In this document: piece after piece, positions 7,146 through 61,900 of the stretch | Position numbering within the stretch: position 1 is the stretch's first letter | Layout: every line of letters begins with the position of its first letter | Assembly (NCBI GenBank): GCA_010405405.1 | Contig: MU004243.1 | Coordinates: 677,340-741,339, forward strand | DNA length: 64,000 nucleotides | Reading direction: 5' to 3' | Origin: Microthyrium microscopicum | Taxonomy: Eukaryota | The notes under the pieces: model-generated | What the model saw: only the letters and a program-made list of their open reading frames with translations | Database searches by the model: none | Told to the model about the DNA's origin: nothing | Position numbers and translations under genes: made by a program

Positions 7146-8266
7146 CTACTCATCCGAGATTGGAAGGATTGGCAACAAGAGACCTTCTTCATCCGCTGGA
7201 TGAGCGCTCATATAGCCACGAATCTGCTTTCTAATCTCCGTATCAAAGCTCTGCTTTGCCATCTCAGCTAGTCCATTGATGTATGCTGTTGTCTTTATGG
7301 CATTGGTCCAATTTGCAACAGCATCAATGCATGCCCAATACCAGAATTTTTCAGTGAAGTGAAATTTTTCCAATCCTGCAAAGATATTCCGCTTTTTCAG
7401 GGCAACGTCTGAGAACCAGTCTGCAAACATTACCAGGATGTCCTCAGCGTAATCCTCTGCAGTGATAGTGACGGCACCACGATAGTCAGTATACAGTAAG
7501 CCAGCCAGTTGCATGTTTATATTGAGACGCTCCAACTCTGTGCAGCGACTAAGAAGCGCGAGAGCTTTACGTGCTTGGGTGGATGAACCAAAGTATTCGG
7601 ACTGAAGCTCGCCGAGCGTAATTGTGCGCAGTGGTTTCAGGTTCACCCGGCTAGTCGCGAGATTGAAATCAATCATAGCTTTCGCATCGGCAAACAAGAA
7701 GTGATTTGCGTAAAGCATTGAAGCCGTTTCCTGGTGAATTTGCTTGTTCAGCCGCAAGATTGCGGGGACAATGTTGGGCACTTTGTCCAATTCGGGAAAA
7801 TGCCGCATTTTGGGGACACGCACCACTCTTTGGTGCCCATATTTGCGTCCTGATAGTTGTTGAGACGTCAATTTTGAGACTCGCACTTTGGTGGTCTTGA
7901 TTACGATTATTTCATCAGTCTGCAAGCACCACTGATAGATTTTATTTCGAAGTTCTCCAGGCAATTTCAAGAATGGAAATGTTTGTTGCGATGAACGTTT
8001 TCTCTATCGAGCAGTCAGAAACATGATATCAAGAGGAGAATGTGATGACATACCTTGGTGTTCAGAGCGTTGTTATTATGGCGATCGCCAGTGGACTCAG
8101 CTTTTCGCTGAGATCCTTTGCTTAAGGTGGAGGCCAAGCCGTTTTTGTCATTTCCTTCATAAGGATCTTTCATAGTAGTATGAACAACAGCATTTCGCGT
8201 TTGATCTTGATGGCGCCCGACTTCATCGCCGTTGCCGTAGGAACCGATCGTTGATGCCTCGGCCAT
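7146..8266 (-). CDS. F-box-like/2EXR-like family paralog 1 (2 exons)
   Basis: Exon 1 MAEAST...NTK, short GTATGT intron, then RKRSSQQTFPFLKLPGELRNKIYQWCL...PAILRLNKQIHQETASMLYANHF...WFSDVALKKRNIFAGL...ADEEG. Confidence 0.8.
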
Positions 8267-8707
8267 ATTTGCCGCGGAAAGGAGTTGATTGAATGATGGG
8301 TTTTTTTTGTTTGATTGCGAGGAAAGGGATATGTGCGGAGTTTGAATGAAGAATGCGCTGGAAGCTGGCGAAATTTTTCGAAGCGGTGCTGAGCAAAGGT
8401 GTGGAAGCAGAGTGAGGTTGAAGGAAGTTTGCGATCGGACTCTGAGGATCAATTGATAAAGCAGGCACGTGCACAAGTACCAGTGACGAGGTGGACGTCT
8501 CTGGTGACTCCGTATGGCTATTTGGGACAACATAATTCCGTAATGCGTCCAGCGAAACATGCGCTGATGGGTCACTGTCAGCTAAGTTTTAAAAATGTAT
8601 AATTCATCACACCGCTCACCGGATACTTGTTTAGAATCATAATAGAAGAAATGTTGCGTTATATGAGATTCTCAGGCGAATGGTAGAGGTGGTGTTTAAA
8701 AGTTGCG

Positions 8708-8733
8708 ATAAGGCTGAGAGACGACCTGATTGG
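8708..8733 (-). promoter_or_regulatory. Family bipartite element upstream of paralog 1
   Basis: Minus strand reads CCAATCAG-GTCGTCT-CTCAGCCTTAT. Confidence 0.7.
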
Positions 8734-8907
8734 CTGATCCCAGTTACTGTTCTTGCTTAAGGCTGAAAAGAAAAGCTTTATTGCCATCGTGTGCTTAGAG
8801 TGAAAAAGTCCAGTGCAGTTTAGATGGTTCCAGATCATTGAACCCTGTCTTACGATTTTCTAATCAAGAGATGTGCATGTTGCCGGTTACCTGCTGCTAG
8901 GCTCCTA

Positions 8908-9144
8908 CACTGGTTTGCGAAATGTGGTGAACTCCGACCCTCCCCCCTAGTGTCTCCAAACATGTGAATTTTGCAGAATCTAACCAATCAGGCTTTTTAT
9001 AGAGGGACGGAATCTGAACATTGGGACCTAAGCCAGAGCCTTTACCACAGAGTAATAAGCTATTCTCGATATGATTGGTTGTATTCTGCAAAAATAATCA
9101 TATTGGGGAGGGGGTCAGAGTTCACCACATTTCGCAAACCAGTG
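8908..9144. mobile_element. MITE-like non-autonomous TIR element (237 bp), Tc1/mariner-type TA flanks
   Basis: Left end CACTGGTTTGCGAAATGTGGTGAACTCCGACCC and right end GGGTCAGAGTTCACCACATTTCGCAAACCAGTG are near-perfect inverted repeats; TA on both sides; no coding capacity. Confidence 0.85.
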
Positions 9145-9446
9145 TAGCACCATGAACTCGACCGCAGCGCAAACCACCAAGTGAAATCCTTCCATCAAGA
9201 AACTTCTTGAGTCAAATACCTTACCCAAAAATCAACAGTAATTGTCTGAAGATGTTTTCTTGAGGACATTGTGACCATTTATAGGTTTGCCAATGGCGGT
9301 GTAACGCTAAAATTGGTTCGGCGTGTACATGGCACGCGCTCGATGGACGATGATCACAGAGGCAATTACATCTCAGCGAAGACGTATGTTTGCAAGCCTT
9401 AGCGTTATAATATAGTATAGAGCGACAATAGCACCCTCTCCGATCC

Positions 9447-17971: not shown

Positions 17972-19795
17972 TCAAATCGTAGACTTTGAGTCGCCTGTGA
18001 TGAATGTCTTGCTCTTTTTGCTGCGTTTGGGCTTGCGGCTCTCTTTCTTCAAGAGCTGCTCGACTCGTTCGACCAGAGGCTTGTCGTCGTCTTCAGCTTC
18101 AGCTGCCGTTTTCTCCTCTGGAGGAAGTTCGAGATCTGCCCCCTCAGTCTCAATACTCTCTATCACCTGCTCTGCTGGTACAGCAGCAGACAAGAGGAGC
18201 TGGCCAATAGGTGAATCATCATCGTCCTCGTCTTGGCCGCCAAAGAGATTGTAGGTTGTGATGGTCAAATCCTTAGCAAATAGAACACCTTCATTGAATG
18301 CCTTTTGATCATTGAATGGCATTGGTCGATACGGATTCTTTTGTTTTTCAATATCCCCGGTCTTAAGCATGCGATCTGCAACGAGCAAAGCATCAATTTG
18401 CCGATTGATACGGTTTATGATTGCGTTGCAGTTTTTCGCCTGCTCTCGACATTTGCGTAGGAGAACCTTTTTGATGTCCCCATCGATGTCGTTGGTCAAG
18501 TCGATATCCGCAAAGTTTGGGTCGTCAAAATCAACCGCGCAGTCATCTTTGCCAGAGTCGCTATCTTCAACTTCCTCATCTTCATCGTCTTCATCTTCGC
18601 TCTCTTCATCCTCGGATTCAACAAATATCTCGTCCTGCAGATCTTCAATTGCCTTTTCACGGGTGTTTGTCATGACTGGGGACGTGGAATTGTGCTTGAC
18701 TTTTCGCTTCAAATCTCTTGCTTGCATGAGTCTTTTCTGTGCCTTTTCTTTCATTTCTTCGAGTCCTTTGACATCTGCCGTAGACTTGGCTACCAATCCG
18801 GCGGATACTCCCATCTCAAATGCTCTTGAGGTATGCCATGGACGAGATCGACCTTCTTGCTTGATCAAGTTGTAGAAGTGTGTGAACTGCATTGCTGCAC
18901 TGACAGTCTTTGCAGCCACTCCGTAGAAACAATGTTCAATCTCCTTCTCAGTTTTCCACGAAAAATGTCTGACAGAACAAGTCTGCGCAATGGCTATTGT
19001 CAGGTTGGGTACAAAACCTTCATTGCGAACCTGTCTGCCACGATTGCCATCTCGACGTTTAACTCTAGACTTGCTGATACCCGCCAGTGCCTTTGAGTTT
19101 GCCCATGCTTTGATAGCTTCGATATCGACATTGATTTCTTTGGCGTTCTTTGTGGCGAGAAACCACCCAGCTTCCTTTTCACGGCTTCCAGTACCGGGAT
19201 GTGTTGCCTTTTGGATACATTTGGCAATTTTCTTGATGATTTCAAGCTTTCGTCCGAACCAGGTTGGATCAGGGTCATAGGTGTGCAGTTTGGCCCATTG
19301 AGATACCGTAGATACATACCCAGTCAGATTTTTGGGGGTCTTTTTGTGCTTCTTTTTCGCACGCTCTTCTTTGCCATCTTCTCCAGCAGAGGCTTTCTTC
19401 TTCTTTTTGTTCCGCTTAGCAGCTGGTTCCTGCTCTGCTTCTGGCTCTGCCCCCGTTTCTGGTGACCTGTCATCTCCATTCTCGGCCTCGGACAAATCCC
19501 GCTTTTTGGATTTCTCGGATTTGCGTTGGTGTTGCAAGAACGTCGCCTTTAGAGCCTTGCGCGCGTGTCCTACTGGTTTAGCATACATTTTGACGCAATA
19601 CTTGTGGTCGTGGCTAGTGTATTTCCACAGTGTACTTCGGCGACGGGGACTCTGGTCCAAGATATTGCTTTCGCGGCGAGTGGTTCTGGGGCTGCTCAAG
19701 GATCCCAGTTTGGCGGCTTCCAGTAGAGGTTTTCGCTTTCGGAAAGATTTTGAGAGGTGACAGTGGAACTGAGTTGTGACAGGATCTCTCGACAC
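17972..19795 (-). CDS. Basic/acidic low-complexity protein with DUF2786-like segment; true start uncertain
   Basis: 607-aa ORF; IIKKIAKCIQKATHPGTGSREKEAGWFLA resembles the fungal DUF2786 motif, followed by CFYGVAAKTVSAAMQF and AFEMGVSAGL; poly-K tracts and an acidic tract. Confidence 0.6.
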   Translation of the reverse strand: MSRDPVTTQFHCHLSKSFRKRKPLLEAAKLGSLSSPRTTRRESNILDQSPRRRSTLWKYTSHDHKYCVKMYAKPVGHARKALKATFLQHQRKSEKSKKRDLSEAENGDDRSPETGAEPEAEQEPAAKRNKKKKKASAGEDGKEERAKKKHKKTPKNLTGYVSTVSQWAKLHTYDPDPTWFGRKLEIIKKIAKCIQKATHPGTGSREKEAGWFLATKNAKEINVDIEAIKAWANSKALAGISKSRVKRRDGNRGRQVRNEGFVPNLTIAIAQTCSVRHFSWKTEKEIEHCFYGVAAKTVSAAMQFTHFYNLIKQEGRSRPWHTSRAFEMGVSAGLVAKSTADVKGLEEMKEKAQKRLMQARDLKRKVKHNSTSPVMTNTREKAIEDLQDEIFVESEDEESEDEDDEDEEVEDSDSGKDDCAVDFDDPNFADIDLTNDIDGDIKKVLLRKCREQAKNCNAIINRINRQIDALLVADRMLKTGDIEKQKNPYRPMPFNDQKAFNEGVLFAKDLTITTYNLFGGQDEDDDDSPIGQLLLSAAVPAEQVIESIETEGADLELPPEEKTAAEAEDDDKPLVERVEQLLKKESRKPKRSKKSKTFITGDSKSTI

Positions 19796-31091: not shown

Positions 31092-32407
31092 ATGGCTACT
31101 CGTGACCCAGCCGTACGCTACCCTAAGCGCATGCGATCCGCCATTTCGTACACAGAAACCGATGATCTGAGCGAATCTGAGGTCGCCTATGAGTCTAAGG
31201 ATGACGTGGACTTCGAAGCACCTGTCAAGAAGCAGAAGAAGGCCTCAAATGTCAGAAAAGCACACGCGTTGGCTGACGACAAGCTGACCGATGAGCAAAA
31301 ACGCCAACGCGCAATCTTCCCATTTCTCAGACTGCCAGGAGAGATTCGGAACGAGATCTATCAATGGTGTTTGTGCGTTGATGGTGGCCAACCCATCAAG
31401 ATCCATTCTCCTCCAATTAAATATCCAGGTAAGATGTTCCCAATGAATCTTCCAGAACTTCGCACGTCGCATTGCGTTTGATGGCTACCATGAGATGCGG
31501 TCCTTATCGAGCGCTATAGACACCACTGGATACGTTGTGAGTTTCACAACTTCCAACTCGCAAAGACTATTCGGTTTCTTCGAAGCTCAAAGCCTGTTGG
31601 CTCTGTTCCTAGATCTATACTGACTCAAACTCAGGTAGAGTTAGTTATATTACGGCAAAGCAAAAAGCTCTAGTCAGCGAGCAATCCGGCCACAGCAACA
31701 AGACAGAGTCTAGACCCAAATACCTCCTGGTGCCTCATCTAATGCCAAGAATCCTACTACTCAACCTGCAGATAAATCAGGAAGCAACTCCATTCTTGTA
31801 CCAAAACCGCTTCATCTTCTCCACCACACGAGCACTACATGCTTTCCTTGTCAAAGTTGGCAAAAACAATTGCAACCACCTTCGTAATATCGCCATCTGT
31901 CGACTCTCAAGAAAAGACCGGGTTAGTCGTTATGACATATTCATGACATTACAACAGCTTACTACATGTACCAATGTACAAAGCATTGATATGGATCCCT
32001 TCTTGGAAAGTCTGGAGTGGAATCGATTCAACGTGACTCTAAACGGCAACCTATCTGATGGCTCGGTTGAGGTTGAACTCAAAGCATTTGCGGAACACTT
32101 CTGGGCGGCCACGAGCCACTGGTTTCGAGCTGTTGCTTTGGCCAAACGAAACATATTTGCTGGCCTGCAGATACTTGTCTTTGCCGACGATTCGCTAGAG
32201 CGAACACTTCAGCGGGCCCGTGGCGTCAAATATTCTTGGTGGTACCCTGGCTCTGGTTACCAGGGTCAGTTATTGAAGAGACTTGTTGCCTGTACGAAAC
32301 AGGCCTTTGATACTGAGATGAGATCGCTCATAAAGAGCGACTTCAGCGGCTATGAAGTTGATCCTCAGGGCAATATGCTCATTAATTTGCCTAATCGATT
32401 CCGTTAG
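31092..32407 (+). CDS. F-box-like/2EXR-like family paralog 2
   Basis: RYPKRMRSAISYTE, FPFLRLPGEIRNEIYQWCL, intron 31429-31634 restores frame, PRILLLNLQINQEATPFLYQNRF, WFRAVALAKRNIFAGL, VDPQGN. Confidence 0.85.
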
Positions 32408-33615: not shown

Positions 33616-34922
33616 ATGGCTCGCTGGTCAAAGATCACTTCCAAAGCTTCCGACATGGCTGCCTCTGTGCGCTATCCCAAGCGCAAACGAACTACTATAT
33701 CGTATGCTGAAGCTACGGATCCGGCCGAAATCGATGTAGTAGCTCACGATGACGAAGACGTCAAGTTCCATGACATCGAATTCCCTGCGAAGAAGAAGAA
33801 GAAGGGTTCCAAAGCCAAGGTAGTCAAGGAAGACACCCTTACTGCTGAGGAGAAACAACGACGTGCAACATTCCCATTCATGAAGCTTCCCGGAGAAATA
33901 CGCAACGAAATTTATAAGCTGTGCCTGCTGATCAACCGAAATAAGTCCATCAAGTTCAAGGACCCGACATCTGATAGTCCAGGCAAAGTGGAAGTCCAAG
34001 TCAAGAAGAAGAGACAGCAGCGACGCTTCCGATGGGCGGCTACTTCCACCGCCGACCAAGACAAATGGCGTCCTTTTGTGCCTCATATGATCACCAACGT
34101 CTTGCTTATCAGCAAACAGGTCCACGCGGAAGCAGCTCCATTCCTCTACACTAACACGTTCAATTTCCCCTCCCAACGAGCTTCAAATGCCTTCCTTGTT
34201 ACGATCGGACCCACAAATTGCAAGCTTTTGCGTCGTATTACCTTTGGCGACCCTGAGGAGGGCGATCTAGAGGCATTCGGCTGGCGTCGAGATATGTTCA
34301 TGACCTTTCAAGCCCTTAGCGCTTGCACGAGCCTGGAACAGATTCATGTAAGAATCCCCCGATTTGTTATAATCCTATGTTTCCCCATCGCATGTTGTGG
34401 CTCCCATCAACTTCTATGGCTGCCACAAGATGCGATGGTGTTTCGTGCTAGAAAGACCAAGCGGTCTTTTCAACGATCATTGCCTTTGGTTGCACTGCCT
34501 TTTCATCAGAATCTAACGAGAATTAGGTACATGCACCATTGGAACGGTTCTACTCAAACCGCTTCACGGTAGACACGGTAGAGCCTGCCTTCGTTAGTTC
34601 GAGCCGCTTCGCGATGGACATCTGGGAATTGTGCGGTCATTGGTTTCGGGCAATAGCTTTGGCTCAACGAAACATATTCGCAGGACTGGACATATTTACT
34701 TTCAGCGACGATGTTTGGGAGAAGGCGCTAGGTATGGCTGGCAACGCTGCAGCTAGCTTCACTGGCGAAGAAACCGCCACCGACATGAAAAGCCTTGTGA
34801 AGGACGCGAAAGATAGCTACGACGTTACAATGAGAGGCATAATTCGAAAGAAGATGAGCGGTCTGGAGGCTGATAAAGACGGATTGCTGCCCCAAATACC
34901 ACCAGTTCAGCCTGTTCAGTAG
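33616..34922 (+). CDS. F-box-like/2EXR-like family paralog 3
   Basis: RYPKRKRTTISYAE, FPFMKLPGEIRNEIYKLCL, intron 34348-34526, WFRAIALAQRNIFAGL, ADKDG. Confidence 0.85.
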
Positions 34923-36121: not shown

Positions 36122-37407
36122 ATGTCTAACGAGGCACTTATCAATTCCGCGGCGCCCAGCGCCAGCGCCGGCACCGCGCGCTATCCGAAGGGTGAGCATG
36201 TATCTCTCTCTCATACTGAACTTGTCAACTTGCGCATCAAAGACGACAATGCCGACGGGGACTCGTTTGACCGGCCAGAGTCGGTTGGTGACTTTGAACT
36301 TAGGTGCCAGATCATGGTAAGCAAAAGCCATCTAACTTTACATTCTAGATGAGCTATTGACCAAAGGATAGAACGCTCAAGATGCCCATGCAACTATCAA
36401 CATCGCGAAGTCATCGAATACGTCCGCAAACTTGCGTCGAGACACCTTCCCTTTCTTGAGTCTGCCTCCAGAGATGCGTAACGAGATATACGGTTGGTGC
36501 TTGGTAAGTCTTCTTTCATCTCAAGAAAATCCCAGGTTCTACTTCAACCTGTGTTGGCTAGAACGATATGGGCCTGGCTTGGGTTTTATTCTTATGCTAA
36601 TAGAATACAGGCTATGCACGACAACGAGCCTCTCATTATGAAGGATACTGTTACACTCGTCCCAGAAAAAGTCATTTCGAATACTGGACTTCTGCAAATC
36701 AGAATCTACCCAACAAAAGGCCCCTGTCGCCTAAATCGTGCAGAAGGCCGAAGCCGCGCTGTTCCCTTGATTACAAGCATCTTGAGAATCAATAAGCAAA
36801 TACATGCCGAAGCAGCCTCCCTGCTATACTCACGATTGCTTAGCTTACAGTCCTACAAGGCCATGGCCATCTTTCTGGGGGAATTGGCACACAGCATCGC
36901 GTCTTCCTTCGGAAAATTCATTTTCGAACTCCTCGATATGACTTCGACATGATAATCCAACGCCACGAAATCTCCGTCATGCTTCAGACATTGGCCTCTT
37001 TCCCAGATATCGAACAAATACAGCTTGCGACTTGGCCCGAACAGCTGACCGACTACACTCGGCCGAGCGATATGCGGCAAGCTCTCGATGAATCTATGAC
37101 GAAGTTTGTTCGCCTCTTCTTGATGGTCTGCGGACACTGGTTCAGAGCCATCGCTATAGCTAAGCGTAACATCTTCGCGGGCCTAGACGTCTTCTCGTTT
37201 GAACAATCCTTCTGGGAAGATTGTTGCCAGCAATTCATTCAGAACAAATGGCTGGAAAAAGATATCGAGCGTGAGTGGATTCAAGATATCTCTACGCCTG
37301 CGATTCGGTTTCGGAACACCTTTATCGCAAAATTGAAGATCATGTTGAGGGATCAATTGAGCGTCTACCGAGCTGCTGAGGACGGCAGCTTCCCGACAAT
37401 CACATAG
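36122..37407 (+). pseudogene. F-box-like/2EXR-like family paralog 4 with a 1-nt frameshift (pseudogene or sequencing error)
   Basis: FPFLSLPPEMRNEIYGWCL; introns 36317-36371 and 36504-36610; frame breaks at G5 run 36877-36881; WFRAIAIAKRNIFAGL; AAEDGSF. Confidence 0.65.
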
Positions 37408-38805: not shown

Positions 38806-40375
38806 ATGTCTAAGTCGAAAAAGATGAGCTCATTGGCTACCGACGATGTCACTCTGCGCTCCTCGAAGCGCAAGCGAGTGGCGGACTCCTATGTCGAAGT
38901 GGATAACTTGAACGACCAAAACAACATCGAAGGCGCACACTCTGACCGGAAAGATGATCTCACAATGGAGGAGATGAAGAAGCAGATGAAAGAGATGAAA
39001 AAGATGATGAAGAAGATGAAGGAGATGGAGATGTTGAAGAAGATGATGAAGGAGATATTTGCCGATACCTCAGACTCAGAGGGTTTGATTAGCGACCATG
39101 AGCAGAAGTCAAAAGCCAAAGTGAGTTCATTGACCCTAATCTTTAAAAACTCAAGCATTCACTGACTTGCAAAAAGATATCTGCTGTCGCTAGAGTTCGC
39201 CTTGCCAAAACTATCAAAGCCAAAGGCAAGGCCAGACGCCCGAGACGAGACATCTTTCCATTCATGCTGCTACCAGGCGAAATCCGCAACCAGATCTACG
39301 ATTGGTGTCTCACTAATGACCGAGAAGCTGCGATTGAGGTACAAGATCCTCCAAACGATCACCCGGAGCGCGTCCGGATTGAACGTGAGTATGGGAATGA
39401 GAACACCATGCCTTACAAGCGATTCACGTTGAATGCTCTTGAGCCTAAGATTTTGCGGCTCACCAAGGTTATCCATGTAAGTCTTCCTGAGTTTACCTTC
39501 ATTCGTTTGAAATGTTCAGTTCTTTGGCTTCCAGTGGCTGGTTCCCAGCAAATCTTACGACTCTCATCGAGACATCTATGATCCAGTGTCATGGATCTCA
39601 TTAGACTCGATAGCTTCTGGAGACTTTTTATGGTTTTTACTGGAAAGTCACGAGAAGGCCTCTACAACCGTGTTTTCACACTCATCTCGCCGGGTTTGAC
39701 GTTGTTATTTTATATTTACTGACATTTTGTAGAAAGAAGCGGCTTCAATACTCTATTCTCGATGCTTCATCTTCGGCTCCGCTAAAGCAGTGGTCGCCTT
39801 TCTCGCTGCCATAGGCCCACAACACTGCTTATTGCTTCGACAAATTGTCTTCGGCCGCGGCCGAAACTTTGACTTCAAACGCTCCGAAATATTCGCAATG
39901 TTTCAATTGCTTACGGCCTACACCAACATTGCGTCAATCAAATTCAATGCACGGTTCCCGTTAGTTTACTACGAACGTATCACGTAAGATTTTGAATCTC
40001 TTGAATTTCAATATCATTAAATGCATAACGCTAACGAATTCCAGCTTCCAGAACAGTAGAGACTCATTCTTTGTCAAGGGCTTTATCCAGATGATCTGGG
40101 ATCTCAGTGAGTCCTGGTTCAGAGCCATGGCCGTTGAACAGGGCAATATCTTCGCTGGAGTAACAGTTTTCTCGATTGAACAGGTTTTTTGGGAGTTTGT
40201 TGGTCCAATGGCCAAGATGAAGGGCCGCTCTCTCACGAACGCGGAGATAAGTTACGCTTGGAGCCAGCGACAGACTACCGGGGCTCAGCTACAGCAGTGT
40301 TTCAACGCTGGAATCAAGAAATTCTTACGCGCCAAGTTCAGCATTTATCAGGCTGATGACAACGGTCATTTCTGA
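38806..40375 (+). CDS. F-box-like/2EXR-like family paralog 5 (4 exons)
   Basis: RSSKRKRVADSYVE, FPFMLLPGEIRNQIYDWCL; introns 39121-39176, 39477-39732, 39984-40044 all restore frame; WFRAMAVEQGNIFAGV; ADDNGHF. Confidence 0.85.
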
Positions 40376-40529: not shown

Positions 40530-40795
40530 TCAACACACCATCGCCTGATTACAACACCACCGTTTGCTTACAACACTATCGCCAGTTTGCATCAACCATG
40601 CATTGTTACAACATCACCACCTGTTTACAACACCACTGCCTGCTTACAACACCGCCGCTTGCTTACAATGCTACTGCATGCTTACCACACCACCGCCTGA
40701 TTACAACACCACCGCCTGGTCAAAGAATCACCGTCTGTTTACGACACCACCGATTGCTTACAACATTACTGCCTGTCAACAGCACCACCACTAAT
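40530..40795 (+). repeat. 19-bp tandem minisatellite, ~14 degenerate copies, consensus TTACAACACCACCGCCTGC
   Basis: Successive units such as TTACAACACCACTGCCTGC, TTACAACACCGCCGCTTGC, TTACCACACCACCGCCTGA, TTACAACACCACCGCCTGG with no spacers. Confidence 0.9.
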
Positions 40796-42133: not shown

Positions 42134-43287
42134 ATGGCTCAAACTCAGTCCGAAGCAGCCCTTATAGCCTCTGCCGGTTATGGTGATCCCCGATATCCAC
42201 CACGCAAACGCGCAAAAGTCTCTTATATCGAGGTGGAAGAGTTCGCAGACTATGATACTGATGTTGATGTTGATGATAACGACGGTGATGAGAACGACTC
42301 TCCAAAAAAGGTTTGTCAACAAGGCTCGCATTTTCAGCGGCATCCTGCGCACAGATTTCTAATATATTGTAGCACGTTAGCAGACGAAAAGCAGCCACTC
42401 GGGGTCTAACCAAGCGCCGTGGGAACCAGAAAGAGCATGGAATCTTCCCCTTCATGAAGTTACCAGGAGAAATTCGCAACCTCATCTACGAGTTTTGTCT
42501 CAAAATTGACCCTGCGACACCTATCGACATCCTTCATCCAGGCTCCACCCAACCAGGCAAAATTCGAGTTTTAAAGCGTAAGCAGAATAGCTTGGCGTTT
42601 CTTACCAATGGGCCCTGCGATAACTCTAATTCTGCATTCAATTATCCGGACCACGTTCGAGTGCCGCACATCATTTCCAAAGTGCTTGTGCTCAACAAAG
42701 CAATCGCTTTAGAGGCTTCACGATTCCTTTACGAAAACACCTTCAACTTCTGTACCCCACGAGCAGCTCAAACCTTTCTCGCAGTCATTGGCCCTGATAA
42801 CCTTAGACGTATCACTCATGTCACATTCGACCGCAAGTCTAAGTCGATGATTAGTCGCCAACACGAGATGTTCATGGCATTCGTTATGCTCCAGCCCTGT
42901 GTGGGAATTAAAAGCATTGTATTCGCTGGTTACTTCCCTCAGCCATATTCAAGCAAGGTCATTCTCCACGCTGCCGAGAATAAGTGGAACATGTCATTTT
43001 TCGCCAGCATGATATTTGAAGACTGCGGATCTTGGTATCGATCCATTGCTCTGGCGAGACGTAACATCTACGCCGGTCTCACTGTCTTGACAATTCGTCC
43101 GCGAACATATGGTTTCATGATTCACTCCTACCTCCGAAATCAGGCCTATAGCCCCGCATGGATTGCAGATTTCCATGCAAAGACCGACCAGAATGTAGCC
43201 ATGGCGGACTGCTTCGAGGCTGATATGAAGTTGCTCCTCAAGAAGAAGCTTACCTTCCCTCACGTTGATGATCAGGGCAATTTCTAA
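42134..43287 (+). CDS. F-box-like/2EXR-like family paralog 6
   Basis: RYPPRKRAKVSYIE, intron 42311-42372, FPFMKLPGEIRNLIYEFCL, WYRSIALARRNIYAGL, VDDQGNF. Confidence 0.88.
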
Positions 43288-49622: not shown

Positions 49623-51490
49623 TTACACTTCTCTCGAGAACGCATTCAACTTCTTCTCAGTCTCAATCGTATCCGTCGGATCAGCCGTCCCATTCGCTCC
49701 AACATCTTGACCTTCTTCCGCATCCAGACCACCATCAACAATGGTCATCGCACTCGGGTCTTCCCTCGTAACTCTTATCATCTTAACATTCCACTTGCCC
49801 ACCCTCACAATCAGCAGGCCCATCTTGCTATCCGGTCCATTCCACACAACCGGTTTTACTGGACTTCCTGCCTTCGTCGTTCTGATTGCACGCCACTGCA
49901 GATTATCGTCCAGCTCGCTCTTATACCAAGCGACATAAGCGCCCTGATTGTTGACCAATCTTTGTCCTTCACTCCTCGATGCAACGAGACCGACGTGGTG
50001 GAGGAGCGCGGGATATGTCATGGTAGAGAGAAGATCGAGCGTGATTTCTTGCGTCTCAGCGTGTGTGTTCTTTGCCATGGCGCGCGGCGCGTTCTTGTTG
50101 AGGCTCCAACTTATGGGCTTTTCATGCTGAGCAGTTGGGGTGACTTGGGCCATGGCGGCGCTGAGACTGATTTCGCGGCGTGATGCGGCGCGGTTGGTAT
50201 GTTCGTCAGCGGTCTCTTGGGCGATGATGGGACCGTGGGCGAGTTCCAAGAATTCGTGGGCGAGGCGATGTTGAGCGAGGCGTTTTTCGGGGGTGGGCGT
50301 GTGGAGGGCCATGAGGTCGGTGATGGATTCCATGGGCATGAATGTGAATAGTTTTAGGTATTTTTCTACGTCAACGTCTGAGGTGGCGAGGAAATACTAG
50401 AGGAGGTTAGACGTGTTTTCGAAGGGTCATTAACGACTTACAGCATAGAGATCGAATGGTGTGGTCATCTCGCGGTTCAGCCAGACTGCATTTCCAGCAC
50501 TCTTGCCAAACTTCTCGCCGGAGGATGTTGTTAGAAGTGGTACGGTAAAGCCCATTGGTTGCCAGTTTTCTGTTTCTGGCGGTATCCGAACGTCCTGATG
50601 GGGGTGATTTTTTGCAACGTGTTTGACGCCCTCGATTCCAGTTATGATGTTTCCGAATTGGTCTGCACCGCCTATTTGTATCTGTACTCCAATTGACTGA
50701 TACATATGCCACCAGTCCCAGGCTTGAAACATTGGATAACAGAACTCAGCCAAAGACATGCCGTCCTTACTCTCCATTCGGTTCTTGACCGAATCTCTAG
50801 ACGACAATGATCCCATTCTCAATCCAGTACCCATCAGCTTCATCATTTCATGCGCCGGCACTTTATTCAACCACACATTATTGTTCAATAGTGCCCGTTT
50901 CCAGTATCGATGCTTCTGATAGCCATATTTGACCGCCAATCGCTCGACACTTTGCCAGATGGCACCGAGTTGTTGATGCATGAATGATATATTATTCTTT
51001 CGTTCCACGTTATCCAGTTGTTCTCGTTCACTAGTTCGTCCTGTTGGATCTCCGACCTGCGCTGTTGCGCCGCCTAGTAATGTAACCGCGCCGTATCCAT
51101 GAAGATACATGTGGAAGATTGCCATGAAGGGTATGAGGTGGCCGACATGTAGACTGGGGGCTGTAGGATCAACGCCGACGTATGCAGCTACTCGTTTGTT
51201 GTTTAATAGCTGATCGAGTTCGTCTCGTCCCCTATGGCAAGTGTCAGCTGCATGGCAATTAGCATCAGCAATTGAACCAACCCAGCAATTTGATGCACAT
51301 AGCCCCTCTCCTCAAAGATTTCTAGCATGCTTTTCCTCCTCCCCTGGGCAATTTCGGCAGCTCGGTTTGTCCATTCTATATCTGCAAAGGTCTTGTGTTG
51401 GATCCATTGTTCGTGGTATAATCGTTTCGGTATTAGGCGAGGGTCGAGTTTTCGTATACATCGTCGACATATCAGCGGCTTGGAAGCCAT
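49623..51490 (-). CDS. MSY1: Mitochondrial tyrosyl-tRNA synthetase
   Basis: Presequence; YVGVDPTAPSLHVGH (HIGH motif), GDPTGR, QIGGADQFGNI, KFGKSAGNAVWL (KMSKS motif), S4-like C-terminus. Confidence 0.95.
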
Positions 51491-51886: not shown

Positions 51887-54800
51887 ATGGCTCGTGGTGT
51901 AGAAGGGAACGAAATGTCAACTCCAAAGACCTCCCAAAAGAAGACGCCAAAGACCAACTCCACCCAAGGCGGCAAGCAGTCCAGTATCCTAGGCTTCTTT
52001 GGCAAAAAGTCGGATTCCAAACCAATTCCTACTCGTCCATCTTTGGCTGCTGCTTCAGCTATTCGAGCTAGCCATATAACCCCAGTGCCAAGCAGCGATC
52101 CTGTCGAACCACCAAGCTCCGCCATCAAGCCAGGCATACTCAACTCTACGAACAGTTCTAGCGAGAAAGAAAACGGTCTGGCAACACCGGTCACACCCGC
52201 CGAAAGACAATCCAGTGCTGATAGTGGTGCAGAACGTCTCAAAGACGATGACGACTCGCCAGTTAGAAAGGTTGATACCTCCTTTTGGGAATTTTAGAGA
52301 GATGATGCTGACATTAAACAAGGTGCGATCTCGCAAAGTCAAATACGCCGAGTCAGACGATAGCGATGACGAAGTCCTCCGACAAGTAGATGGAAATGGC
52401 AATCGTAGAGCTTCAAAGCGACGAAAAGTCAGCGCAGACTCTAGTGACGAGTTCGGTGTTGATGACGATGTCGAGGCAGCCATGATGGAGGTTGATGAGG
52501 ACGATTTCATCGTGGCAGACGACTCTGATGAGGAAGTCGTTGCCCTCAAACGAAAGAGATCAAAACCTCCAACAAAATCATCGCCGCCTCGCGCTGAGGC
52601 CGTGCGACCGAAGGTTGAGGAAGATGCGATGGAGCTGGATGAAGCTACAGAATCTACAGCTTTGCAGTGGATCTTTGACCCAAATGATCCAAATCCACTC
52701 CCATACATGCGACCAACTGATGGAAAAACCAAAAACCCCAGCACTAGAAAGGCTAGAGCGTGTGAAACAACTCCAGAAAACCGGCATCCATGGCTTGCAA
52801 AGATTCAAGATGCCGAAAGACGTTTCTCTGATCATCCCGATTACGATCCACGAACACTGTTCATTCCACCGAAATTATTCGATAAGTTATCAGCTTTCGA
52901 ACAACAGTACTGGAACATCAAACGACAACACTTTGACACTGTAGTGTTCTTCAAAAAGGGCAAATTTTACGAATTGTACGAAATGGATGCAACCATCGGT
53001 CATCAAGAATGTGATCTTAAAATGACTGACAGGGTTAACATGCGCATGGTTGGTGTGCCAGAGTCTAGTCTTGATCATTGGGCAAATCAGATTGTTGCCA
53101 AAGGCTACAAGGTAGCACGCGTCGATCAAATGGAGAGCGCCCTTGCCAAAGAAATGCGTGATCGTGACGACAAATCAATTCCGAAAGGCCAGAAAAAAGC
53201 ACCTGTGCGTCGAGAACTTGCAAGTATTTTGACGGGTGGAACCTTGGTTGATGCTGGTATGCTTCAAGACGATATGGCCACTTACTGCGTTGCGGTCAAG
53301 GAAGAGGTGGTGGATGGTCTGCCTGCCTTTGGTATTGCTTTCGTGGATACTGCAACTGCTCAATTCCAAGTTGTTGAGTTTACTGATGATGTAGACATGA
53401 CCAAATTTGAGACTCTTGTTGCTCAAATCCGACCAAAGGAACTACTACTCGAGAAAGGTCATATATCAGCCAAAGCTCTACGCATGCTCAAAAACAATAC
53501 TGGTCCATCCACTATCTGGAACTACATGAAGCCAGATAAAGAGTTTTGGCCTGCGGATGTCACCTGTCGCGAGATTGACGCTTGTGGTTATTTTATTTCG
53601 AAAGACAACTCCGAGGAAAAGACCTGGCCAGCAGTACTTGCAGAGAATAAGGACAAGCGACTGGTGATGTGTGCAGTTGGAGCTTTGATTCAGTATTTGC
53701 AAATCCTCAAGATCGATCAGGAGCTTGTCTCTCTTGGTAACTTCCAATGGTACGATCCAATCCGGAAGGCGTCTAGTCTGGTCTTGGATGGTCAGAGCTT
53801 AATCAATCTTGAGATATTTGCCAATGGATATGATGGAGGTTCAGCCGGCACGCTCTTTGCAATGATCAATAGGTGCATCACGCCTTTCGGAAAACGCATG
53901 CTTCGCCAATGGGTCTGTCATCCTTTAGCAGACTCTGCCAGAATCAACGCTCGTCTTGATGCTGTCGATGGTCTATTGGCAGATCCAAGTATCGTTGGAC
54001 AATTCACAACATCTTTGACCAAATTGCCAGATCTCGAACGGCTCATCTCTCGCGTGCATGCCAAGCGATGCAAAGTTCAAGATTTCGTGCGAGTCTTGGA
54101 AGGTTTTGAGCAGATGGAATATACTATGAGCCTGCTCGGCTCAACTCCAAGTGGAGATGGAGTCATAGGCCAGTTAATTTCTGCCATGCCGGACTTGGCT
54201 CCCAAGTTGAAGAGCTGGGAAACCTACTTCGATCGAGTCAAAGCTCGTGAAAATGGAGTTTTTATCCCAGAAGCAGGGTTTGACGATGCGTATGATGAGT
54301 CTCAAGCTGAGATTGATTCATTTCACCAAAAGCTGGATGTTGTGCTCAAGGACGCTCAAAAGAAGCTTGGCACCAAAGCAGTCAGCTACAAAGATGTCGG
54401 CAAAGAGATTTATCAACTCGAAGTATCAGCCAAAATCACCAAAGTCCCATCTGGCTGGACTCAAATGTCAGCCAGCAAGCTGGTCAAGCGCTGGTATACC
54501 CCTGAGCTCAAGCTTTTGGTCCGTGGTCTGCAGGAGGCACTGGAGATTCAAGGTCAAGTCACCAAGGAGCTCACCAATCGTTTCTATGCAAAGTTTGATG
54601 AAGATTACGATACATGGCTAAAGGCTGTGCAGATTGTTGCCCAACTTGACTGCCTAATCAGTCTTGCAAAGACGTCTTCAAGTCTTGGATCTCCATCTTG
54701 TCGACCAGAACTTGTCGACAGTGAGCGTACTGTACTTGAGTTTGAAGAGCTACGACATCCATGTATGGTGAGCACAGTTAGCGACTTTATTCCCAACGAT

Positions 54801-55607
54801 GTCAAGCTAGGCGGTGATACCGCCAATATCAGCCTTCTTACTGGTGCAAACGCAGCCGGCAAATCTACAGTTCTTCGCATGGTAAGTACAATCTCGAAGA
54901 TGCTAGCAGCACCTAGCTAACGATCTCAGTCATGCATCGCCGTCATCTTAGCCCAAATCGGCTGCCACGTACCAGCCAAATCTGCTCGTCTCACCCCCAT
55001 CGACCGCATCATGTCCCGCCTTGGCGCCCAAGACAACATCTTCGCCGCTCAATCCACCTTCTTCATCGAACTCTCTGAGACCAAGAAAATCCTCTCCGAA
55101 GCAACTCCACGCTCCCTCGTAATTCTGGATGAGTTGGGCCGTGGTACATCATCCTACGATGGTGTCGCCGTCGCCCAAGCAGTGCTGCACGATGTGGCTA
55201 CACGCTTGGGTTGTATTGGCTTCTTTGCTACACACTACCATTCCCTCGCCGTTGAGTTTCAAGACCACCCGGAGATTGAGTGTAAGCGTATGGGTATTCA
55301 GGTGGACGAGGAGGCTAGGCGTGTGACGTTCCTGTATCGCCTGGAGACTGGCATTGCCGAGGGTTCATTTGGTATGCATTGTGCGAGCATGTGTGGTATT
55401 CCAGCCAAAGTCGTCAGTCGAGCTGAGGAGGCAGCCAAGCAGTGGGAACATACAAGTCGCCTAAAAGATAGTCTGGAGAGTGCGAAAGGTGGGAGCTATG
55501 TGCCGCTGGGCATGATGAGTGATTTGGCGTGGATGATGAAGGGAGAGAAGGGCGGTGTGTCGAAGCGTGAGCTGGACGTTTTACGCAAGGCTATTGCTGC
55601 ATTGTAG
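51887..55607 (+). CDS. MSH6: DNA mismatch repair protein MSH6 (3 exons)
   Basis: PIP box QSSILGFF, YDPRTLFIP, FFKKGKFYELYE, TGANAAGKST, STFFIEL, LDELGRGT, FATHY, SFGMHCA. Confidence 0.97.
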
Positions 55608-57993: not shown

Positions 57994-59219
57994 TTACCGC
58001 ACGGTCGCTGAGCAGAAGTTTCCTTCTTCGTCTGCGAGATAATGCTGCATCTCTTTTCGAAGGAGCACCTCCATTGCAGACTTGAAGGTTTCCTTCATCG
58101 CGGCGCAATGCTCTTCAAAGTTGTCATAGAAAGCAGGTCTATGCGGACTGTCGAAATGGTGTAGTCTAGCGCAATGGGTATTGCATAGATCTTTATAGCT
58201 CTCCGGCTGAATAGTCAAAACCTTGATTCCTGCAAAGATGTTGCGCTTGGCGCAGGCAATGGCTCGAAACCAATAGCCGCAATCTTGCCAGATTATCTCA
58301 GCAAGCTTGGACAAATCGACAGCTACACCGTCGAAGGCGAGCTGATTTGCGTATTCGACAGGCAACGTGCCGCTCCAGACAAGTTGTTGAAGTTGCACGC
58401 ACGATCTCAGCAAATAGAATGTCATGTAGACTCCTTGCCGAGTACCATGGCGGAGTAGATCTTCTTCTAAATCGAAAGAGATCTTACGTATCAATCCGCA
58501 ATTCGTTGCGGCAATATCTGCGAGAAACATTTGTGCCCCGAGTAGGGTCTTGAATTTGAAAGATTTCTGGTATAGGAAGAGCGCAGCTTCTGAGGTGATC
58601 TGTTTATTTCAACCGCAAGATATTCAATGGGAAATGAGGCGCTTGCACCTTGTACTTCGGAGCAGCGGTATGGTCGGTGTATGGGCCACTGACCGAATTG
58701 ACAACAACTGGACCTCGTAGGGTAGGTGCAGGAGGAAGCACAGATATAGCCGCGCCGTTTTCAGCCTCGAGGCAGTATTTGTAGACCATAATCCGCAACT
58801 CGGGCGGTAATGTCATGAAACCGAAGTTTCCATCCTGTTGGTTCTGCGCGGAGTCAATTGAAACGGCATCTGCCGCTTGGTCTTGGTGAGGATTCTATAG
58901 TCTGTTAGAAATTTGATGTCTCGTACTAGCTTACTTGGGTACCTATTTAACGCACCTTATTCAAAGATATATTTCCTTCGCCGCCGTGTTGATATGATAG
59001 CAAGAGGTTGGTATCGCTTTGCGCGTCATATGCCATTGACACGCCCACGCCTTCAAGGTCGTGCGCGTTACCAACTCCAGGAGCAGTGCGACGAGCATCC
59101 TCAGTCTGGTCTTCAACACGAGCCGGAATCGCGCTCATAGATAATTGCATTGCGTATGATGCTTCCGTAGGTAAATCACTATCGAGAGGTGATCCGAAGA
59201 TAGAAAGTTGAGGGTTCAT
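57994..59219 (-). pseudogene. F-box-like/2EXR-like family paralog 7 with a 1-nt frameshift (pseudogene or sequencing error)
   Basis: Intron 58895-58955; FGFMTLPPELRIMVYKYCL; extra A at 58607-58609 gives TTG AAA TAA instead of ..LNKQITSEAALFLYQ; WFRAIACAKRNIFAGI; ADEEGNF. Confidence 0.65.
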
Positions 59220-59590
59220 AGTGCAGTCTGATTAAAGGGAGGATGTTGAGGATGGGGTGTGGAAAGAGAACATAAAAGTAGGCGAGTCTTATATGGAAGC
59301 TCAAGAGGTTTGCGCTAGACAGGAAGAATCCATGGTGAGGTGAACTATATATTCGCAGTGAATACAAATAGTAAGGTCGTGCGCGTGTGGGAGTTTGCTG
59401 AATGAGGTGAGTAGGTACATTTGCATTAGGTAGCCGAAAGGTGTAACTGCAGCGAATAGCTGTATATACCGGCAAGAGCTGGAGTAAACTGTATCATTAT
59501 ACCTAGCAAAGGAAATTTCGCTAGCAGTCTAGAACCGCAAGAGGCTTAAGTTGAGGTGCTGCTAGAAGACCACGAAAAGCCGAAATGGGC

Positions 59591-59616
59591 ATTAGGCTGA
59601 CGAGCATTCTGATTGG
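59591..59616 (-). promoter_or_regulatory. Family bipartite element upstream of paralog 7
   Basis: Minus strand CCAATCAG-AATGCTC-GTCAGCCTAAT. Confidence 0.7.
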
Positions 59617-60490
59617 TTGAACTCGTGTAATTGCTTGTGCCAACCCGCAATTAGGCTGCTAATGGAGATCTTAACTCATGAGCCTATCTTAGCATACAGA
59701 TGTGTGAGACAAGGCGTATTAACGCGGGCCTGAAGATATAGCTTGCTTGGACCCTTTACTTCCTTGCTTTTAGCAACTTCTCCACGCAATCAAATTTCCT
59801 CAAATGTAGGAGTTGTCAAACAGAGTTGGCTCAAATCACCACTGGACATCTTCCTGCCAATGTCAATCAAAAACGAGATGTAACAGATGACCAACGTAAG
59901 TATGAACTCCAGCGCTTTCATATAAGGAAAGCGCTTCATACCCTTTGATTGTTTATAAAGAACCCCTCCATGCGTGTGCTATGTGTCAGGAGATCTACTA
60001 TACCGAATGAAGATGTATCGCATTTCATTACTCTTCCTGAACAGTCTTTGTAAGTTTACCTTGACAGAAGCGGTCACAAGTGTAAGTGAAGCGCAGCTTT
60101 CATAGACATCAATCAGGCATGAAGATATTTGAGAGTCATTCTTGACATTACGTTATCAGCCTCAAGCATTCTCTCTTTTTGGTAAAAATATCTCCTAGCG
60201 AAGTTTTCGTCCACTTTCAACGTTGTAGCGGCCGAACACTCGAAGTTAGCTGTTCATTTGATTGCCGACGAACTGGCAGAGTGACTCATGTCACAAGTGA
60301 CCACATCAGTTTCCATGATTCCCATCATGGCTTCCGGACTCAGCGTACCATACTTGCTAAAATAAAAGATAAAAGTGCTAGGGAACAATAACTTCGATGG
60401 GAAGTCAAGCTCTTCATGATGAAGTGTGCCGGATAGGAGCCGCATGATTTGATCAGCCGCAAGTCAATGTTTTGTGTAGAGCTTCAACAA

Positions 60491-61900
60491 CTAAAAGCTA
60501 CCTTCGTCGTCTGCCCCGAAAACAGCCATTTCACGTCGTAAGATAGATTTCAGTTGCTCCGTAACGCAATCCTCCAGCTGGACAGCTTTTTCGGGAATTT
60601 GGTGAAGGAAGTGACCTTGAATGTGGCGAAAATAGCTTAAAGACCAGTAAGTCGACAGCCGACGGCTTGCATCCGTACAGAGCCAGCGACACACATCCTC
60701 CCAGAAATTCCTACAGATTTTGAACACCTGGAATTGGTCAGTGATAAGTCCACGACAGGGTTTTACCGCAACCAGCACGTGCTGAAAAGAGCTTTCGGCT
60801 TTTTCAGCGTGACATCTACTATGCTTTACGGTAACCAAGAGGTTTGAGAAGAGAGTAACTTACTTCCAGTCCGGCAAAGATATTGCGTTTTGCTTGAGCG
60901 ATTGCTCTAAACCATGGGCCAGAGAATTCCCACAACATGCTAACCAAGTAATTTACCTGGAAGCTATCATCAACACAAATGATTCGGTCAATGTATGTTT
61001 CCGGTAGATATGCGTCCATTTTGATCTCGATAATGTTAACGCAGGCTGAAAGCAGATGGAATGTGATGAGCATCTCATGACGCCGGCCAAAGCGAATCAC
61101 CTGGTTCTTGGAAAACCAAACACGTTGTAACAGTGGATAGTTGTTTTGGCCCACCGCTAGTAGAAACGACTGGACGGCTCTAGCAGACTCGAACTCAAAG
61201 ACGTTTGAATAGAGCATTGGGCATGCTTCGGTACGAATGTCCTTGCAGATCCTGAGAATTTTGGGGATAAGCTGAGGCACTGCAATTTCATTGCAATAGC
61301 GGCGACGACCTTTCTGATGGGGACCGTTTTGTAGAAACTTCAAGCTCTTCTGCTTTGTGCGTTTAATCTTGATCTGCCGAGGATGCTGAGGAGGGGGATG
61401 CAGGATTGTCAAAGGTTTATCGTCAACAACAAGGCAGGTTCGATATATTTCGTTGCGTAGCTCTGGAGGAAGCTTCATGAAAGGGAATATGTGACGAGTG
61501 GGAGAATCGTTCTCCGAAAGGGTCTTGGACATTTTCGCTTTGCGCAAGGTCTAACGCTTAGTTGTTAGTAATGGACTCAGGCTTAGCATCACACGCCACG
61601 TACCTTGATCTTATTTTTGCTGACGGGACTGCTCGGTTCATTTGCAATGTTGTGCTCATAGTTGTCGCCATCGCTGACCTCTGCGGTCTCGACATATGAT
61701 ATAGCTGTTCGATTGCGTTTAGGGTACCGATTTGCCTGCTAGTTATTAGTATTCGATCGCTCTATGACAGCCACTGGAGTTGAACGAAGCCATGGTATGC
61801 CTGGTGGTCGTTTCATATCCGTCGAGAGACACAAATTTGTACGTGGAGTACTCACCTCAGCACCCGAAGTCGCCAACAGATGCATAGCTGGGCCAGACAT
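60491..61900 (-). CDS. F-box-like/2EXR-like family paralog 8 (4 exons)
   Basis: MSGPAMHLLATSGAE|QANRYPKRNRTAISYVE...|TLRKAK..FPFMKLPPELRNEIYRTCL...WFRAIAQAKRNIFAGLE|VFKIC...ADDEGSF; last intron 60728-60863. Confidence 0.85.

Follow-up and report, generated by a model that had tools for sequence, protein, structure and literature searches.

The closest described relatives of the gene cluster analyzed here are proteins with the Pfam domains DUF7730 and 2EXR. They appear to be widespread in Ascomycota, and the nearest Atlas clusters (51-587 members) are all most common in this phylum, with the exception of one that is most common in Basidiomycota. A full-text literature search found no function of DUF7730/2EXR in print, and one passage of the paper introducing 2EXR says of its two ExR motifs that they “might be functionally important” (PMC9621593). 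An arrangement similar to the one predicted here, i.e. an N-terminal helical element followed by a beta-alpha solenoid, is found in F-box/LRR receptors (FBXL3, SKP2, FBXL2, KDM2A, yeast Dia2, and Ctf13). Large lineage-specific expansions of F-box genes are known from plants and nematodes.

In the window, i.e. the whole stretch of 64,000 nt that was analyzed, all eight loci proposed in an earlier note on this DNA were found at the positions given there, on the expected strands and with one shared architecture (Table 1). They lie within 55 kb in the genome of Microthyrium microscopicum, a Dothideomycete, the species under which the database matches with 100% identity are listed. A family profile was built from the single-exon cores of the eight loci (alignment A1) and run against all six-frame open segments of at least 25 aa. 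It matched 16 segments with E values from 1e-115 to 4e-6, all 16 of them inside the eight loci, and no further match was found among such segments in the rest of the window. The copies can be aligned over their full length with pairwise identities of 23-40%. The family is real, local, and multi-copy.

Table 1. Loci of the Microthyrium microscopicum family, their gene models, and the positions of the two signature motifs in the window
Locus	Positions	Strand	State and gene model	Product	F-box-like motif	W-helix/RNIFAGL motif	Remarks
G1	7146..8266	-	intact; exons 8054-8266, 7146-8003	356 aa; P0003, BT63DRAFT_483694	7923-7979	7371-7418	without N-terminal basic motif; long branch
G2	31092..32407	+	intact; two exons, one 206-nt GT..AG intron	369 aa; P0011	31317-31373	32120-32167	
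G3	33616..34922	+	intact; exons 33655-34347, 34527-34922	362 aa; P0005	33871-33927	34641-34688	
G4	36122..37407	+	frameshifted; RNA-supported introns 36316-36370, 36503-36609		36447-36503	37138-37185	RNIFAGL part in another frame
G5	38806..40375	+	apparently intact; exons 38806-39120, 39177-39476, 39733-39983, 40045-40375	398 aa; P0012	39255-39311	40115-40162	divergent WFRAMAVEQGNIFAGV
G6	42134..43287	+	intact; exons 42134-42310, 42373-43287	363 aa; P0001, BT63DRAFT_465127	42445-42501	43033-43080	WYRSIALARRNIYAGL
G7	57994..59219	-	frameshifted; database model	371 aa; P0010	58769-58825	58225-58272	F-box-like variant FGFMTLPPELRIMVYKYCL; RNIFAGI
G8	60491..61900	-	intact; exons 61856-61900, 61604-61735, 60864-61550, 60491-60727	366 aa; P0004, BT63DRAFT_465133	61431-61487	60867-60914	

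The gene models of G1, G2, G3, G5, G6, G7, and G8 were fixed by database proteins. G2 and G4 are transcribed and spliced, as seen from GT..AG joints in the overlying RNA contigs. The G2 intron is placed at 31429-31634 by the protein map and at 31426-31631 by the RNA contig, a shift of the cut by 3 bases that fits equally well. G3 is present and intact, but its annotated start is 33655 instead of the 33616 given earlier. The count of eight genes also has to be qualified, because six loci look intact, but G4 and G7 carry frameshifts of 1 nt. The G4 frameshift, 1 nt at the G run 36877-36881, is shared by a colinear spliced RNA contig, and the spliced frame therefore stops just past 36949, upstream of the RNIFAGL part. 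In G7 an extra A is present in the run 58607-58609, within the conserved ILRL-NKQI motif; this may be an assembly error at a homopolymer. In database model P0010 it is spanned by a 49-nt “intron” (58600-58648), and the conserved motif is lost with it.

Both signature motifs were recovered at all eight loci, i.e. F[PG]F[ML]xLPxE[ILM]Rxx[IV]YxxCL, with an FGF...VY variant in G7, and the W-helix/RNIFAGL motif, the latter by a loose pattern search. Five of the eight (G1, G2, G3, G4, and G8) have RNIFAGL in its exact form, and the others have the variants GNIFAGV (G5), RNIYAGL (G6), and RNIFAGI (G7). Within WFRA...NIFAG, the W, A, N, I, A, and G do not vary among the copies. In all eight loci, the alignment also shows NKQIHxEAxxxLY and, at the C-terminus, (A/V)DxxGx(F/L). 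An N-terminus resembling RYPKRKRxxISYxE had been assigned to six copies, which is generous: it is clear in G2, G3, G6, and G8 and recognizable in G5 (RSSKRKRVADSYVE), but has decayed to a degenerate form in the sixth, G4 (RYPKGEHVSLSHTE), and is absent from G1 and G7. The N-terminal tail of G5 contains a K/M/E-rich repeat.

The assignment of the LPxEIRxxIY region to the F-box-like 2EXR/DUF7730 signature was borne out by Pfam matches in the N-terminal half. Seven full-length proteins were scanned, with curated cut-offs of 27 bits for DUF7730 (PF24864) and 24.8 bits for 2EXR (PF20150). 2EXR matched all seven at E ≤ 0.1 and reached its cut-off in three (35.1 bits in G8, 30.1 in G1, and 25.2 in G3; 16.9-22.3 bits in the other four). 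DUF7730 matched six at E ≤ 0.1 and reached its cut-off in two (34.8 bits in G1 and 28.6 in G8); four others had values of 15.9-26.7 bits (E 4e-6 to 8e-3), and G5 had no match at E ≤ 0.1. Most of the Microthyrium copies fall under the curated Pfam cut-offs (five of the seven for DUF7730, four for 2EXR). It is the N-terminal 125-130 residues that match both models. The DUF7730 matches are confined to profile positions 2-137 of 235, and other DUF7730 proteins likewise match mainly the first 110-135 positions, with one reaching 179. In contrast to DUF7730/2EXR proteins, five Microthyrium copies carry the additional N-terminal RYPKRKRxxISYxE motif.

For the C-terminal half, the Pfam scan gave no credible match. 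A profile of this half alone was run against 1,835,955,588 proteins with a threshold of E ≤ 1e-3, and the signature turned out to be nearly confined to Microthyrium microscopicum. The 11 matching proteins are those of the eight loci, P0013, P0014, and P0015. P0013 is a ninth copy, a fragment on another contig of the species, so that at least one further family fragment is present elsewhere in the genome. P0014 and P0015 are weak matches from outside (E 3-5e-4), and P0015 has the same architecture, with HWFDAMERSKGSPFAGLDVLKV. At E ≤ 1e-10 the signature, i.e. the strongly conserved WFRAIALAKRNIFAGL plus the terminal ADxxGxF, is found in Microthyrium microscopicum only and distinguishes its proteins from other DUF7730 proteins; this restriction may be a sampling effect, because the Microthyriales are thinly sampled.

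AlphaFold2 models were obtained for the G6 core (pLDDT 80.7, pTM 0.77) and for G2 (pLDDT 67). According to the two models, the product of an intact gene has about 360 aa and starts with a disordered tail, which in five copies bears a basic patch of KRKR type. It continues with the F-box-like helix LPxEIRxxIYxxCL, a low-confidence insert of 50-60 aa, and a second helix, NKQIHxEAxxxLY. A leucine-rich-repeat-like solenoid of three to four beta-strand/helix turns is predicted to follow, then a long helix that ends in WFRAIALAKRNIFAGL and turns into the last strand, and finally two capping helices and the acidic (A/V)DxxGxF tail. The earlier note had regarded the RNIFAGL half as a private domain. 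In both models this half continues the same beta-alpha solenoid; it is probably not a separate domain and seems to be a widespread fold with a lineage-specific sequence. In length and overall predicted fold, the Microthyrium proteins agree with the DUF7730 clusters. Whole G6 shares 206 features with the DUF7730/2EXR clusters of the Atlas (feature score 0.97), and its comparison with a 339-aa DUF7730 representative gave TM scores of 0.51/0.54 for 233 aligned residues (span 29-356), a value that “meets the bar for a name” in a comparison of predicted with predicted models, whose matches are leads. For the C-terminal part alone, the nearest named match, again a lead, is a DUF7730 cluster (0.90). 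A comparison of the C-terminal profile with three single DUF7730 proteins by hhalign yielded nothing (probability ≤1.6%). What connects this half with DUF7730 is mainly the Atlas comparison of predicted models.

The protein branch lengths among the copies are 0.8-2.2 substitutions per site, implying that synonymous sites are saturated. On the tree, G2 is sister to G3, its neighbor in the array (support 85/83). Both lack an N-terminal intron that G4, G5, G6, and G8 have in common at about the same alignment position. At the DNA level, the similarity among copies is limited to two short stretches of 46-60 nt, so that neither duplication nor gene conversion has occurred recently. The label “rapidly diversifying” therefore goes too far: the identities and branch lengths demonstrate large divergence alone, and an old duplication accounts for it equally well. 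The broken copies G4 and G7 have long branches (2.16 and 1.97), compared with 0.8-1.2 in five of the six intact copies; as G1 is intact and has a branch of 2.24, branch length alone is no marker of a pseudogene. We consider it likely that the eight loci belong together as a subfamily of the DUF7730/2EXR proteins of Ascomycota that is restricted to one lineage; old local duplication (in tandem) within the Microthyrium microscopicum lineage would have produced it, and it would be evolving by birth and death.

The molecular role of this subfamily depends on the reading of the split F-box-like element. It is quite possible that the proteins act outside SCF, independently of Skp1, with the LPxEIR and NKQIH helices capping a small solenoid within the molecule; they might then, in common with other DUF7730 proteins, be, e.g., binding modules or regulators. 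More tentatively, the element may bind Skp1 and make the proteins substrate receptors of SCF ubiquitin ligases, in which solenoid and cap would be the putative substrate-binding part and the basic N-terminal patch a candidate nuclear import signal. The sequence searches favor action outside SCF: the canonical F-box models PF00646 and PF12937 had no match at E ≤ 0.1 in the seven full-length proteins, and F-box-like_2 (PF13013) matched six of the seven with 13.3-15.6 bits, all under its cut-off of 21.6 bits. The family profile had no sequence match among solved structures, those of F-box proteins included, even at E ≤ 10. The interruption of the putative F-box by the low-confidence insert points in the same direction, as does the restraint with which the 2EXR paper, in the passage quoted above, words the function of the ExR motifs (PMC9621593).

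The structural comparisons bear on both readings. Foldseek gave no match at E ≤ 0.001 for either model. With VIA-align, where Z <8 may mean a common arrangement only, all matches had Z ≤5.0, and F-box/LRR chains were level with TIM barrels and helical bundles. FBXL3 (4i6j_B) ranked first or second in the match lists of both independent models and was among their best-covering matches (Z 4.9 over 153 aligned residues in one and 4.8 over 151 in the other), which speaks, if weakly, against independence from Skp1. So does the Skp1-bound F-box 5ibk_E, which was superposed on model residues 4-105 after trimming of the insert (47 of the 48 F-box residues aligned, rmsd 2.5 Å), with a Z of 4.8 that is below the specific level. 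The leucine-rich repeats of NLR, Dia2, Ctf13, KDM2A, SKP2, and FBXL2 recur among the structural matches, those of NLR, SKP2, FBXL2, and KDM2A with Z values of 3.2-4.5, level with TIM barrels. One source calls G6 “F-box domain-containing”, and LPxEIxxxIxxxL, with a K-containing helix after it, appears to resemble the F-box consensus; both speak against independence from Skp1. The Microthyrium proteins differ from F-box/LRR receptors by the split of the putative F-box, by the shortness of the solenoid, which is limited to three to four turns before its helical cap, and by the lack of F-box matches at the curated level and of any match to the LRR models of Pfam. With all Z values ≤5, the likeness may be generic.

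The wider proposal that the array consists of rapidly diversifying nuclear recognition receptors under positive selection, serving non-self recognition, genome defence, or a developmental programme, is unlikely. It would fit a local multi-copy array of strongly diverged copies with a lineage-restricted signature, five of them with a basic N-terminal patch, and the pseudogenised members suggest birth-and-death turnover. In contrast to actively expanding recognition families, the array has no recent duplicates, and its copies resemble each other at the DNA level in the two short stretches only. Sequence conservation is lowest in stretches that include the predicted disordered tail and insert, a pattern suggestive of relaxed constraint no less than of diversifying selection. 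The cluster is indeed interleaved among housekeeping genes: 13 of 22 other ORFs scanned match Pfam families, i.e. amidase, DUF7168, flavin reductase, aldo-keto reductase, SHMT, RPA34.5, SDR, GH15, PAP2, the two halves of TyrRS, MutS domains I-IV, and MutS domain V. Among these 22 ORFs, ordinary metabolic and housekeeping genes were found and no recognized incompatibility or defence domain. Equally improbable is the combined version, in which birth-and-death SCF receptors would hold Skp1 by the split F-box and a private cap (WFRAIALAKRNIFAGL plus ADxxGxF) would offer a new surface for binding substrates or partners, diversified from copy to copy for variable targets, e.g. non-self or invading genetic elements. 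If true, it would parallel the plant and nematode F-box expansions in a filamentous ascomycete. The array resembles these expansions in its local arrangement, its pseudogenised members, and the combination of a conserved N-terminal motif with divergent putative substrate-binding parts, and differs from them in its small size (eight loci and one fragment) and the lack of recent duplicates.

It is very unlikely that the cluster is a decaying remnant of mostly non-functional relics, with open frames that are largely products of gene-model fitting. In favor of this reading are the frameshifts at two loci of the eight, the masking of one of them by the “intron” of P0010, and the long introns (179-256 nt) that the models of G2, G3, and G5 need. 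Against it, the 206-nt G2 intron is borne out by the spliced RNA contig, and the introns of G5 show donor, branch-point, and acceptor signals of canonical type, with AAG as one of the acceptors. In addition, one open exon of 304 codons makes up the whole core of G6, and six copies have kept open frames and all conserved motifs at 60-77% sequence divergence, which requires purifying selection.

The cluster adds a lineage-specific subfamily to a known domain of unknown function and is neither a new domain nor a new system. It represents a compact natural series of six intact and two broken paralogs with very high divergence and few invariant positions, in which the invariant positions of WFRA...NIFAG mark residues that are indispensable to fold or function.

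The eight family loci described in the earlier note were borne out by motif scans, frame translations and lists of open segments. With a profile of the single-exon cores of these loci (A1), we searched every open segment of 25 aa or more in the six frames of the window. The profile matched 16 segments (E 1e-115 to 4e-6), each within G1–G8, so that the window contains no ninth copy by this search. Loose patterns recovered both the N-terminal F-box-like motif and the W-helix/RNIFAGL motif of the C-terminal half at 8 of 8 loci, and the exact RNIFAGL string is present at five of the eight. The proteins share 23–40% full-length pairwise identity, and at the DNA level only two common stretches of 46–60 nt are found.

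Family loci G1–G8, with the database proteins (P handles) that represent their spliced models, and other genes of the window
Feature	Position	Strand	Spliced model	Length (aa)	Remark
G1	7146-8266	-	P0003	356	
G2	31092-32407	+	P0011	369	
G3	33616-34922	+	P0005	362	
G4	36122-37407	+			
G5	38806-40375	+	P0012	398	
G6	42134-43287	+	P0001	363	
G7	57994-59219	-	P0010	371	
G8	60491-61900	-	P0004	366	
ORF	17972-19588	-		538	sole Pfam match DUF7168 (E 9e-7, 29 bits); uncharacterised
Serine hydroxymethyltransferase	24397-25158	-			
GH15 glucoamylase	46420-47463	-			
Tyrosyl-tRNA synthetase	49623-51125	-			
MutS-family mismatch-repair protein	52248-55607	+			domains I–V

A database protein assigned by name to Microthyrium microscopicum matches the G6 core at 100% identity, and the proteins of G1, G3, G7, G8 and a ninth fragment are likewise named for this species. 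Exon coordinates were obtained by mapping the database proteins onto the window. The public sequencing run X1 is labelled merely as guessed RNA; nonetheless, its contigs show GT..AG joints, which support a 206-nt intron in G2 and, in G4, two introns (55 and 107 nt). For G3, G5 and G6, no X1 contig with a joint was found between 30900 and 43400, a result that is uninformative on expression. One X1 contig (40941–42528, depth ~5) runs colinearly across the annotated G6 intron (42311–42372) without a joint, and may derive from RNA that was not spliced, from the transcript of a neighbour or from carried-over DNA. In G5, three introns have canonical donors and branch points, and one acceptor is AAG. 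The first exon of G5 contains an imperfect 12/21/30-nt repeat (38972–39056), encoding a K/M/E-rich run (MKKQMKEMKKMMKKMKEM...) absent from the other paralogs. Just downstream of G5, a 19-nt unit (ACACCACCGCCTGCTTACA) is arranged in tandem at 40535–40765 (12.2 copies, 67% matches), with self-similar six-frame translations. Upstream of G1 lies an inverted repeat of ~87 nt (8905–8990 / 9072–9147, 77% identity).

Eight loci do not amount to eight genes, as had been claimed: six copies are intact, one is clearly broken (G4) and one is probably broken (G7). When G4 is read with the X1-supported introns, a stop is reached just past 36949, and the RNIFAGL half is encoded in a different frame. The shift lies between FLG and GIGTQ, where five consecutive G occupy 36877–36881. 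An X1 contig is colinear with the genome over 36610–37731, and since the RNA contig carries the shifted sequence too, G4 is a transcribed frameshifted copy. In G7, an extra A in the run 58607–58609 interrupts the conserved ILRL-NKQI motif midway, and the P0010 model removes 49 nt (58600–58648) as an intron, whereby the motif is lost. Judged from the assembled sequence rather than from reads, G7 thus probably contains a frameshift that was bridged by the gene caller.

The assignment of the N-terminal LPxEIR region to the F-box-like/2EXR type was upheld by Pfam, mostly with sub-cut-off scores. 2EXR (PF20150) was reported in all seven full-length proteins (above cut-off in three) and DUF7730 (PF24864) in six (above cut-off in two); both models match the N-terminal 125–130 residues of the core. 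PF13013 (F-box-like_2) was found in six of the seven, each time under its cut-off, and PF00646 and PF12937 matched none of the seven. The C-terminal pieces alone gave no credible Pfam match; we regard MGT5A_N (E 0.044) and Gasdermin_C (18.9 bits vs. a cut-off of 36.3) as noise. Other DUF7730 proteins that were fetched match mainly model positions 1 to 110–135 of 235, with one reaching 179, so that a weak match in the second half is normal for this family. Aligning the C-terminal profile with three single DUF7730 proteins by hhalign yielded probabilities of just 0.1–1.6%.

Structure predictions were made for full-length G2 (369 residues, mean pLDDT 67.0, pTM 0.63) and for the G6 core (287 residues, mean pLDDT 80.7, pTM 0.77), each from an 11-row alignment. 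The order of elements is identical in both models. Two short helices cover LPxEIRxxIYxxCL; next come a beta hairpin, an insert of low confidence (pLDDT <50) and a helix that spans NKxIxxEAxxxLY. Three to four turns of strand and helix lead to a helix of 22 residues that finishes in WFRA...RN, after which IFAGL turns into the next strand, and two or three helices cap the end. The RNIFAGL region is thus predicted to be part of one continuous domain, and the separate private domain that had been proposed is not seen in either model.

Matches to solved structures were weak. The family profile had no match at E <= 10 among solved-structure sequences, and Foldseek returned none at E <= 0.001 for either model, its top rows being TIM-barrel enzymes with a TM of about 0.2. 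With VIA-align against 48,161 representative chains, the best Z values were 4.9 and 5.0 for the two models. FBXL3 (4i6j_B) ranked first or second depending on the model (Z 4.9 over 153 residues, Z 4.8 over 151 residues), and the 48-residue Skp1-bound F-box 5ibk_E aligned over 47 residues (rmsd 2.5 Å, weak Z of 4.8). Repeats of NLR, Dia2, Ctf13, KDM2A, SKP2 and FBXL2 also came up repeatedly, at scores level with those of TIM barrels and helical bundles; according to the guidance given with VIA-align, scores of this size are no proof of a related fold. More telling is the comparison with the Atlas: whole G6 scored 0.97 against 2EXR/DUF7730 clusters (206 shared features), its Atlas model superimposed on a DUF7730 cluster representative over residues 29–356 (TM 0.51/0.54), and among named clusters DUF7730 was again the closest to the isolated C-terminal part (0.90).

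The distribution of the C-terminal half is narrow. A profile of its 130–170 residues alone (A3) was searched with HMMER against 1,835,955,588 representative proteins and retrieved only 11 at E <= 1e-3, eight of which (E <= 1e-30) are the window loci. P0013 (E 4e-13; BT63DRAFT_450507), a protein of 132 aa from another, 4.5-Mb contig of M. microscopicum, starts inside the motif (MAVARRNIFTGLQIL...) and terminates in YQADEDGNF, and is a ninth family copy or a fragment of one. The remaining two are of other origin: P0014 and P0015 (E 3-5e-4). The alignment of P0015 extends across the entire core, with HWFDAMERSKGSPFAGLDVLKV replacing the RNIFAGL motif, showing that remote relatives of like architecture exist. 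Word-based protein searches added seven weak relatives from outside the species (P0007, P0008, P0009 and P0016–P0019), none of which has the RNIFAGL signature. Of two metagenome scans, the one that used the C-terminal alignment gave 264 pattern matches and the one that used P0015 gave 349; tblastn confirmed none of them.

A tree of the eight copies was calculated with P0015 and P0016 as outgroup, the short fragments P0013 and P0014 being excluded. It is nearly star-like, with terminal branches of 0.8–2.2 substitutions per site and strong support for none of the seven inner branches. The adjacent G2 and G3 pair (85/83), and G1 joins them (90/88). Long branches lead to the broken G4 and G7, but also to the intact G1. 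Such protein distances imply that synonymous sites are saturated. G2–G6 are five head-to-tail copies spaced by 2.5–3.3 kb, G7 and G8 are neighbours on the opposite strand, and G1 is solitary; ordinary metabolic and housekeeping genes separate these groups, and the earlier note had likewise placed the copies among housekeeping genes. Intrachromosomal inversion is frequent in Dothideomycetes, and an initial tandem array could have been dispersed by it. An all-against-all comparison of the six-frame segments of the window revealed no second repeated gene family accompanying the copies. G1–G8 have no RIP signature, their TpA/ApT (0.48–0.74) and (CpA+TpG)/(ApC+GpT) (1.23–1.64) values being as in the flanking DNA. 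The AT-rich block at 1–3800 (20–28% GC) shows a strong RIP-like dinucleotide bias, with values of 1.55–1.62 and 0.07–0.48, respectively, vs. 0.5–0.7 and 1.2–1.6 in the remaining window. A repeat that was degraded by RIP and borders the gene-rich region is the probable explanation of this block.

The best-supported reading is that G1–G8 form an old, locally duplicated, lineage-restricted DUF7730/2EXR subfamily under birth and death. The observations of the earlier note stand, and its interpretation does so in part. From the predicted layout, in which an insert divides the F-box-like element and a short solenoid follows it, we infer that a putative role as SCF substrate receptor is the likeliest mechanism, if a tentative one; a role independent of SCF is roughly as probable. 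A full-text literature search found no published function of 2EXR or DUF7730, and one passage in print states no more than that the two ExR motifs “might be functionally important” (PMC9621593). A KRKR patch in five copies is the basis for a putative nuclear localisation. The analysis gave no support to rapid diversification, non-self recognition or genome defence as readings of the array. G1–G8 are of modest significance and belong, as new members, to a known but uncharacterised kind of protein.
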